Shown: one piece after another, positions 26,901-29,900 of the stretch
Numbering within the stretch: position 1 is the first letter of the stretch
Layout of the letters: each line of letters opens with the position of its first letter
NCBI GenBank assembly: GCA_020137815.1
Contig: CM035350.1
Location: 806,001-870,000 of the forward strand
Source of the DNA: Hormiphora californensis
Taxonomy: Eukaryota; Animalia; Ctenophora
Length of the DNA: 64,000 nt
Direction of reading: 5' to 3'
Made by a program: the position numbers and the translations under genes
The notes under the pieces: generated by a model
The model's input: the letters and a program-made list of their open reading frames with translations, nothing else
Told to the model about the DNA's origin: nothing
The model's database searches: none

Positions 26901-29900
26901 TACACAACATGGGCTACACAATACACATGGATAAGGGATGTAACTATGCCTTATTTTTACAAATGTGGCTTCAAAACTCACATCTATTTTGGTCTGATCA
27001 GTGAAGGTATTAGCGTACTGGTTCTCCCAGGTATTAGTACCATCACCAAACTTAATGTTTTCAAGGGGGAACAAGTCTGCGGTGTAGTGGTTACTACCCT
27101 TAAAGTCAGTCACCATACATTTCATAGCCAGGGAGTCGTCTCCTAGATCTGTCCAGGACTTGGCGAAGGAAAGCGCTGCAAAGGGGGAGGGAGATTAGAG
27201 AGATGTATAGTTACGAAATGGAATGTCTTTGAATCACTAAATACTGTGCAGTTACGTACAGTTACGTAATTCGAGCAGGGTGCGATATATTACAGTCACT
27301 CTGGGCGTTCCAACTTACACAGCAGTTCAGCCAGATTGTCACTCTTCTCTACGGTGTTGATGGTGCCAAACACAAACTGACACTTGTACGTGGTGTCAGC
27401 TGACAGACTGGATACCGCCTTTTCAGCAGTGGATTGAGTTGTCGTGTGTTTGGTGAAGGATGCTGTGCCAGATGCAGTAGCGTAGGTGTCACTTCCCACT
27501 ACAATATTAACAGCGGTAGGTTGTACCAAACTGTTGGTCATGTCACAGATATAGGTGATAGGGACTACCAACAACCGTTCCTACATTCACATCCACGATT
27601 TCTGGAGGGGGAGAGAGGGATGGTCAAATTGATAAATTTGGTCACCAAATTAAATACCATATTTTACACTACTGAGTATATCCTCTAACTGAGATGTATA
27701 TTTCACTTACGGACGACATCCTACTTGGACAGTGCTATCAACTTGAGACTCAGTTGAAGCCTCATCTGCAGCTCCATCCCATTTAAACCTGCAAGTCACC
27801 ATCATATCCTTGTCAGTACTAGGCGAGGTAAAGGTGAGCACTTTACCGCTCAGTGAGGAGGTGTGGGTTGCACTATTCCACAGCACCGTAGCAGAGGTCG
27901 GGTTGGTATCACTGAGGGGGGGGGGGGATGGTTAAATAGAGGGGAGGGAGGGTTGGTGGTTATTATAGAGAAGGGATGGAGGGTTCAATGAAATAGTGTT
28001 TATTTAGGACTGTAGACGACTCGGAGATTTATTTCAGGAAAGATAATACGGAACGGTTTCGACGTTTAACGTCATCATCAGCTCAAATTAATTTGTTTAA
28101 AGTAGTGTTGAAAAGTTTGAAACTTTTTGGTTAAGAGGAATGAAGAGTTGGTTTCACTGAGTGGGTGAGGGAGGAATGGGAGAGACTGTAGAGAGGAGTG
28201 AGGTTGGAGAGTTGAATTAGCAATTACCTCTTTACATTAGCTACTGTACATGTCATTTGGGTTGTTGCAGATGCCAACACGGGAGTAGTGGATGAGATAA
28301 CCTCTGCAATGGGGGAGGGGTGTTAGTAAAACACACACTGCACTACGACATATTATTTGTTGTCATGTGAGACTGGTAGGGGTGGGGATCACGTACCAAC
28401 AACGTCCAGGGTGTACGCAATACTCTTCTCATCTGTTCCATCACTATTAGAGTCACTAGATACACAACTAAATGTCACGTCTGCGTTTGGTTTTGTCAGT
28501 GTCAGTTTGTCTGTCACACTCTGTCAAGGTTTGTCATGTTTAGTGTCAGTTAAATCTTATAATTTAACACATCTAACCCCCTTCTACTAAACCAGTATAT
28601 ACCAACTCACATGTGTTCCTGCATCCCATGTCCCTGTTTCAATAACATAGTTCTCCCCGAAGGCAGATGACTCGAAGTTATGCTTGGCAGGTTCTTGTAC
28701 GGATATGACCTTGTTGGTGAAGATCACTGTGTCCTGTCCCTTGAGAGCCTTGTTAGTGGTACTGGTCACCACGAACCGGGTATGGAAACACTTCAACTTG
28801 GCAGTCTTTGTGACCGACTGGGTGCCATACTTGACTGTACAGGTAATCGTCTTGGTCTCCTCTTTAGTACAGTAGGTGTTGTCCACAACGAGGGAGGCCT
28901 CGAATATATTGCTGGACCATGTTTTAGATGTTGTGGCTTTGTTAGCAGTGGCGTCCTTGGTCCATGTAGTAGTCCCGTCCGAGAAGGTATAGTCAGTGGG
29001 CTCACTGGCACCGTTCTTAACAGTACACTTGAATGGGTCCCCCTGATATCCAATTAGAACCCACACGTCTTCCACCTCAACAGCTGGGACAAGGTGGCAG
29101 GTAGAGAAAGAGAGAAAGAGAGAAGAGAGAGAGAGAGAGAGAGAGAGAGAGAGAGAGAGAGAGAGAGAGAGAGAGAGAGAGAGAGAGAGAGAGAGAGAGA
29201 GAGAGAGAGAGAGAGAGAGAGAGAGAGACAGAGAGAGAGATAGAAAGATAGTGATATCATTCATTTAACGCATTACTTACAGACAACATCAAGGGTGATG
29301 ACGGATGTAGGAGAGAAACTGGACTGACTTGTGAAGTCGAATTTGCACGTGTACTTCCCATCTCTGTTAGCATGGGTAGGGTTCGCTATACTCAGTACAG
29401 TTTTCTTGGCAGTGGTGGTGATGGAGTAGTCCCCTCCAGCAGTGATGGTACTTGAACCAGTGGTCCAAGTTGCACCGTTCTGGGTTTCTGAACCCTCCAG
29501 TGTACACTCCAGGTCTACCTTGGCATCGTCACCCTCTCGTGCGTAGATGTTATCCTCCGACTGAGCAACTACAAAGAATAAGCACTGTATGTTAGTTGGG
29601 GGGGGGGGGCTACAACATGTAAACAGTACAAAATGTGAAGGCAGTGAACTTCATGAAAATCCCTTCATATCATCGGAGTCTGAAGTAAGATCTCTGCAGT
29701 CACTTACGTCGTGTGTAAAGGGTAATCTCGCTCTTTAGAGTTTTAGAGTTAGGGTAGTTGTAGACACAGGTATATTTCCCAGCATTCCCTACCACGGGGG
29801 AACTAATTGTGATCTTCTGAACCCACTTGATGCCGGCAGTTTTATCGATGGTTTGGGTTCCACCTGAGGGTGCCGTCCAGCTTGCAGATGATGGAGCAGT

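Follow-up and report, generated by a model that had tools for sequence, protein, structure and literature searches.

Why does a spliced leader run straight into the core of a predicted hammerhead ribozyme, twice within one gene of the ctenophore Hormiphora californensis, and what would such a junction do to the ribozyme? We addressed this question in a window of 64,000 nt (contig CM035350.1, positions 806,001 to 870,000 of the forward strand), and all coordinates below are positions in this window. The original prediction held that trans-splicing had exchanged the native 5' strand of stem I for the leader, which would disarm the ribozyme in one copy and might rebuild stem I in the other, so that splicing could act as a switch between self-cleavage and a capped, stable RNA.

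Two leader-headed inserts in introns of one gene

The window is animal DNA, and a long minus-strand gene in it encodes immunoglobulin, sushi and ephrin-receptor-like domains. This gene is very long and multi-exonic (approximately 11959-33600 and beyond), with a probable membrane anchor. Elsewhere in the window lie a tandem repeat of a 24-nt unit, some 32 copies long and containing long open frames (44575-45367), and a 214-codon open frame on the minus strand (53524-54165), which by eye we take to be an exon of a strictosidine-synthase-like protein.

An identical 43-nt spliced leader occurs twice on the minus strand, at 22249-22207 (copy 1) and 28124-28082 (copy 2); for its last 25 nt, two occurrences were observed in the window and none was expected. 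It equals the H. californensis trans-spliced leader given in the available text of PMC8527503 minus the first G of the latter, and it is complete in both copies, starting at the same base. Both inserts are short (approximately 140-190 nt) and solo, and each lies in sense within a GT-AG intron of the host gene. Copy 1 occupies an intron of 345 nt (21963-22307, minus strand) and copy 2 one of 316 nt (27912-28227, minus strand); both introns are documented by spliced contigs from run X6, and the frame stays open across them.

As originally described, the leader ends at the ribozyme core: in copy 2 its last G (28082) abuts CUGAUGA (28081-28075), and in copy 1 a single C separates the leader end at 22207 from the core. 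The copy 2 motif (28057-28081, minus strand) comprises CUGAUGA, an extra U, a helix II of 4 bp with a 5-nt loop, closed by G10.1-C11.1, and GAAA (28060-28057). A short helix III and a predicted proximal cleavage triplet follow (28052-28056, minus strand). This triplet is GUU in copy 2 itself, a form common in the alignment published in PMC4209133, and GUC in about 99% of the family depth; since C occupies 28052 across the family (22, 17 and 16 contigs in runs X1, X5 and X17), we read the family triplet as GUC at 28054-28052. An alternative distal triplet, GUA, is followed by UUAU (together 28043-28049, minus strand); this UUAU could, by eye, pair with the native acceptor strand described below. 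The copy 1 motif (22175-22206, minus strand) comprises the intervening C, the core CCGAUGA (U4C), an extra A, a 4-bp helix II that differs from that of copy 2, GAAA and a self-complementary helix III segment ending in GUA. Relatives of both copies vary in the core: U4 is present in part of the copy 1 family (18 contigs in X1 and 21 in X5), and the copy 2 family differs mainly in the loop at 28066.

Predicted hammerheads of the Penelope-like minimal type

Both predicted ribozyme motifs fit the minimal type I hammerhead of Penelope-like elements (PLEs). The consensus in the available text of PMC4209133 consists of a U-rich 5' side, CUGANGA plus one base, G10.1-C11.1, GAAAN, a short palindrome and NUH. 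The CUGANGA...GAAA core is canonical in copy 2 and carries U4C in copy 1, and both copies have the extra base between positions 9 and 10.1, the G10.1-C11.1 pair closing helix II, and GAAAN, a short palindrome and NUH, which make up a dimer-type helix III. In a dimer arrangement, the helix III segment forms six of six pairs in copy 1 and four of five in copy 2. Free folding did not yield the hammerhead fold (z between -1.0 and +1.0), as is expected because the motifs are of the dimer type; a single minimal hammerhead showed no in vitro cleavage in the assays described in PMC4209133.

A search of the window for the hammerhead grammar with a real helix II returned two matches, namely copies 1 and 2, at a chance level of 0.017 per 64 kb (60 simulated sequences). 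Rfam gave no match anywhere in the window at the gathering score and nothing relevant between 21000 and 29000 at E<=5. None of 121 other leader junctions in metagenome contigs had a hammerhead core within 3 nt behind the leader, and these loci, which are mostly mRNAs, contained neither a hammerhead nor a sequence akin to either copy body. Viral contigs gave zero matches to the leader or the core pattern. Ten matches of the leader-end plus core pattern in prokaryotic genomes were discarded as chance, having neither leader nor helix II.

Two many-copy, polymorphic families

Contigs of public sequencing runs mapped to both loci place copies 1 and 2 in two many-copy families (families 1 and 2). 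Summed contig depth over both bodies exceeded that of the flanks by two to three orders of magnitude in two samples of organism A, depth not being equal to copy number, and family 2 is also many-copy in the related organism B, with the junction unchanged. Judged from depth and loose ends, the copy 1 body spans 22066-22206 (minus strand) and the copy 2 body 27986-28081 (minus strand). The 3' ends are variable, at about 22071 and about 22066 in family 1 and, in family 2, at 27986-27987 (loose ends in X1, X5 and X17) and approximately 13 nt beyond the 3' end of copy 2; none carries poly(A). In three X1 contigs and one X17 joint, the leader is inverted relative to the body.

Copies 1 and 2 are recent insertions. 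Run X5 contains an allele without copy 1, joining 22062 to 22296 with 48 bases in place of 233, and an allele without copy 2, which departs from the window at 27960 and rejoins it upstream of the copy. Copy 1 is flanked by a target-site duplication of 6-8 bp (upstream copy 22250-22257, downstream copy 22060-22067, minus strand); the flanks of copy 2 show no clear target-site duplication.

The bodies 3' of the cleavage site do not align between families above chance (equalled in 959 of 2,000 shuffles), and the UUAU that both families share may matter because the bodies are otherwise unalignable at this level. Several further features of the families were recorded. Loose ends of family 2 at 28030 and 28063 suggest further subfamilies with other helix III sequences, and one further subfamily has, by eye, a loopless AAUU palindrome (two contigs each in X1 and X5). 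In some runs, depth is higher over the 3' body parts 22078-22109 and 28010-28042 than over the cores, and AATAAA stands near the end of both bodies. Family 1 has a terminal ATG-started frame (22066-22105) that runs off the insert end, and the shared 3' extension of family 2 beyond 27986 has ATG as its last letters; an ORF of the parent may begin at either place. In RNA runs X22 and X6 we found no contig with the leader joined to the copy 1 body, although contigs cannot show absence, and X6 had zero cover on the copy 2 body.

A leader exon in genomic DNA could also mark a leader RNA gene or pseudogene, a site-specific insertion behind a leader exon, or a product of chance or assembly; retroelements that target leader genes exist, among them NeSL and SLACS. 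The H. californensis genome holds 718 dispersed leader copies given without explanation in PMC8527503, the available text of which makes no statement on the sequence 3' of them, and this count would suit the leader-gene reading. Candidate true ctenophore leader RNA genes are found in L087:282-420 and L088; there a GT donor comes after the leader exon, the RNA beyond it is folded (z -3.55), and both loci have an upstream region in common. Unlike such a gene, both copies continue from the leader exon with C and have no GT donor, their flanks show no likeness to L087 or L088 (best local scores 12-16), and the empty alleles are without the leader too. Chance or misassembly is countered by raw-read contigs from X1, which cover both junction regions, and by the 0.017 grammar matches expected per window. 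Together with the acceptor-bearing relatives described next, the empty alleles largely refute this group of explanations, and we regard it as very improbable.

Unspliced relatives carry a splice acceptor at the junction

If the leader was joined by trans-splicing, parental copies should carry an acceptor AG directly 5' of the core, at a junction that is fixed rather than scattered. Such relatives were found in both families. A contig from X6 matches 22102-22208 (107 nt) without a difference; upstream of this segment, in place of the leader, it has a T-rich stretch that ends in TAG. In a family 2 contig from X17, a pyrimidine tract with TAG at its end immediately precedes CUGAUGA (28081). The acceptor AG takes the position of the leader's final AG in the unspliced relatives of both families. 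The displayed acceptors amount to one contig per family among the loose ends listed (24 out of 166 and 19 out of 76); neither contig belongs to the run closest in sequence to the window, and they reach 17-64 nt upstream. Two other records leave the copies near the same points: a DNA record from X5 has a match ending at 22208 with 80 further letters beyond, and, less clearly, a record from X1 has a match ending at 28084 with many gaps. The junction itself did not scatter, with ten of the 25 pieces listed at the copy 2 locus (of 25 + 457) crossing into at least 14 leader letters and no indel listed.

Trans-splicing at an acceptor 0-1 nt 5' of C3, followed by reverse transcription, is thus well supported, because the acceptor-bearing relatives, though few, are concordant and the junction is fixed; on the same grounds, the proposal that the leader replaced the native 5' strand holds up. 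A close parallel is the hammerhead in the pseudo-LTR (pLTR) of Drosophila virilis Penelope, as described in the available text of PMC4209133. It, too, is of the minimal type I with an extra base after A9, and its 3' splice site likewise falls in the 5' strand of helix I, which is very short (2 bp), so that the ribozyme differs before and after splicing. In Penelope, however, a 75-nt intron is spliced in cis, with the acceptor 4 nt before C3, whereas the ctenophore copies have a trans-spliced leader 0-1 nt upstream of C3 and preserve the spliced form in DNA many times over. The searchable supplement of PMC4209133 contains no ctenophore terms.

Helix I pairing in spliced and unspliced forms

Each copy offers two triplets with a C15.2-G16.2 pair, one proximal and one distal, the latter followed by UUAU. 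An earlier cleavage register for copy 2, at UUC, was dropped; it has no 15.2-16.2 pair, and the family base differs. The innermost helix I pair uses the G of the AG that leader and acceptor have in common. The leader forms two contiguous helix I pairs in copy 1 and one or two, depending on the register, in copy 2, compared with 2-5 in the PLE minimal type.

These values alter what had been expected of the individual copies. The statement that the leader end of copy 2 cannot pair with a post-cleavage strand CGUAUU was too strong, as three of the first four pairs form even in the register proposed; moreover, that strand belongs to the disfavoured register without a 15.2-16.2 pair, and the family triplet is GUC. 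The suggestion that the leader might rebuild stem I in copy 1 found no support either: the helix does not go beyond chance and was equalled by 133 of 1,000 shuffles. For the leader helix of copy 2, the corresponding figure was 436 of 1,000.

The acceptor strands, each assessed by eye on one contig, give a mixed picture. In family 2, the acceptor forms four of the first five pairs in the proximal register or four contiguous pairs in the distal one, more than the one or two contiguous pairs of the leader. In family 1, the proximal register allows two pairs with the acceptor and, with the leader, two pairs, a bulge and three more; in the distal register a first mismatch is followed by five pairs with the acceptor and two with the leader. 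Judged from these complementarities, helix I is different in the spliced and the unspliced form, though not in a simple manner.

The pairing pattern raises the question of whether splicing gates the ribozyme. According to this reading, the acceptor strand would form helix I and the unspliced RNA would be cut, the leader would shorten the helix or shift the register so that the capped RNA survives, and the acceptor would be kept at the core for the sake of gating. The family 2 difference points in this direction, as does the retention in both families of two GUH triplets and of a UUAU complementary, by eye, to the acceptor RUAG. Penelope hammerheads differ between spliced and unspliced forms (available text of PMC4209133), and retrocopies would derive from uncut, spliced RNA. 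Yet all helices concerned are short and rich in A-U and G-U, the leader helices remain within the shuffled range, the acceptor pairing comes from one contig per family, and in family 1 the leader outpairs the acceptor in the proximal register. In a double-hammerhead topology, the leader strand would pair at the site of the downstream partner, and the leader alone would therefore not protect the cap. Single minimal hammerheads are inactive (PMC4209133), cleavage in the Anolis Poseidon element PAc depends on protein and is unneeded for insertion (PMC11167929), and D. virilis Penelope provides a known cis-splicing precedent for the arrangement (PMC4209133), as far as the available texts of these reports go. 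Overall, we consider the splice gate unlikely, if worth keeping in view. We give a similarly low probability to its extended form, in which ctenophore PLEs retain the acceptor as the helix I 5' strand so that trans-splicing gates the ribozyme, unspliced RNA being cut, possibly at the distal triplet, capped RNA being spared and translated, and hundreds of leader-headed mini-copies recording spliced sense RNA as a template.

Origin of the inserts

We favor, with some confidence, the explanation that the inserts are short retrocopies of PLE RNA which had received the leader by trans-splicing, at an acceptor adjoining the 5' end of the ribozyme core. The fusion, the two many-copy families, the insertion polymorphism, the target-site duplication of copy 1 and the acceptor-bearing relatives are observed. 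The parent, we infer, would correspond to the pLTR/ORF junction of a PLE, with a 5' intron acceptor that, like the one in Drosophila Penelope, overlaps helix I. The ctenophore would splice its own leader onto this acceptor, and the PLE reverse transcriptase would start internally, some 100-140 nt behind the core, and soon reach the cap, leaving a solo, ORF-less, leader-headed mini-copy. Splicing does alter the outer helix I pairs, probably as a side effect of the acceptor position, because the ribozyme would act only with a dimer partner or with protein and because the copied RNAs are uncut.

Known PLEs offer precedents for most of these steps. In the available text of PMC11167929, the hammerhead of PAc lies at the pLTR/ORF junction, the setting proposed here for the parent; its reverse transcriptase starts internally at two adjacent sites 111-118 nt into the ORF, producing variable 3' tails, its main template is uncut RNA, and hammerhead cleavage requires protein and is dispensable for insertion in vitro. 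Unlike the ctenophore copies, PAc has no leader and its ORF begins inside the hammerhead; the ATGs that correspond to its ORF start are followed by early stops in the copies here. The PLE insertion traits present at our loci are a target-site duplication (copy 1), a variable 3' tail and inverted 5' pieces, along with a splice acceptor on the 5' strand of helix I as in Penelope (one displayed contig per family). No reverse transcriptase or GIY-YIG ORF adjoins either copy in the window, and the pLTR-ORF-pLTR tandem of an autonomous PLE is absent at the locus, where the inserts are solo. Lengths, variable 3' ends, duplication and inversions are consistent with the PLE mini-copy mechanism. Against it stand the absence of a linked ORF, the single displayed acceptor contig per family, the lack of a clear target-site duplication at copy 2 and the stronger pairing of the family 2 acceptor strand, which favors a real effect on cleavage.

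Another reverse transcriptase could have made the copies, since leader-headed LINE-like elements exist in ctenophore DNA (metagenome contigs L028, L039, L042 and L064). These contigs carry some upstream flank, a 5' leader, an ORF1 of about 430 aa that is rich in cysteine and histidine, and an overlapping start of ORF2, which is weakly endonuclease-like (E 0.075). In addition, just behind the leader, L071:96-150 and L015 share a non-canonical hammerhead-like motif (CYGAUG, five bases, a 4-bp hairpin, AGAAA) upstream of ORF1-like genes that appear to be related; a leader also heads the genomic ORF of L081.

The sense orientation of both copies in introns (two of two) also fits re-splicing from host introns. 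The inserts might then be self-renewing, SINE-like elements: a leader-headed copy transcribed as part of a host intron would gain a new leader at its own terminal AG and would be mobilised by machinery supplied in trans, perhaps that of the leader-headed LINEs, and the hammerhead would be a PLE relic. The junction of family 2, identical in organisms A and B, would suit this, as would the low share of contigs that continue into unlike sequence (0.01-0.04, DNA runs) and the existence of the ORF1/ORF2 elements themselves. The orientation, however, is a sample of two, and GAG is a poor splice acceptor. Acceptor-bearing parents exist, one of them identical to copy 1 over 107 nt, the 3' ends vary without a tail or repeat, and both families conserve the hammerhead core. 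This leaves self-renewal doubtful, a little less probable than the splice gate, and we retain the PLE retrocopy as the preferred reading.

Retrocopies of a trans-spliced PLE RNA would differ from other elements with similar parts. Athena RNAs of bdelloid rotifers are said to undergo leader trans-splicing. Athena and Terminon are likewise PLEs with hammerheads in a trans-splicing animal, but they are telomeric, endonuclease-less giants (available text of PMC6431247), in contrast to the short intronic inserts of the ctenophore. Non-LTR retrozymes are, like our copies, short hammerhead repeats without coding capacity, for which an origin from PLE pLTRs is proposed, and dispersed monomers occur; according to the accessible parts of PMC7229834 and bioRxiv 10.64898/2026.07.22.740005, they are defined by tandem units and circular RNA, whereas both copies in the window are single and start at the capped leader rather than at the cleavage site. 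In dinoflagellate retrogenes, a genomic 5' leader marks the copy of a trans-spliced RNA, as it does here (PMC5585692, PMC12014239), and in Hydra about 30% of transposable-element long reads carry a leader (PMC12220107); in their available text, these reports deal broadly with genes or transposable-element transcripts and do not describe a leader that meets the core of a ribozyme.

Implications for ctenophore leaders and Penelope-like elements

In our searches of the open-access literature, neither these ctenophore families nor a PLE hammerhead with a leader attached came up; the parts are known separately, and their combination appears to be new. The finding suggests what some of the 718 dispersed, unexplained leader copies of the ctenophore genome are, such copies being a known source of false shared first exons (both in the available text of PMC8527503). 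The acceptor form and the leader form constitute a natural RNA pair for asking whether splicing modulates the activity of a PLE hammerhead; this possibility has been raised for Drosophila Penelope, without an assay of spliced against unspliced RNA in the available text of PMC4209133. Splice gating, if true, would explain why only unspliced tandem RNA gives full, intron-retaining elements. Provided that the PLE link is right, the presence of a leader in DNA proves reverse transcription of spliced sense RNA, and this would bear on the question of whether PLE templates are antisense or unspliced sense RNA (as posed in the available text of PMC3846280) and on intron retention in full elements.
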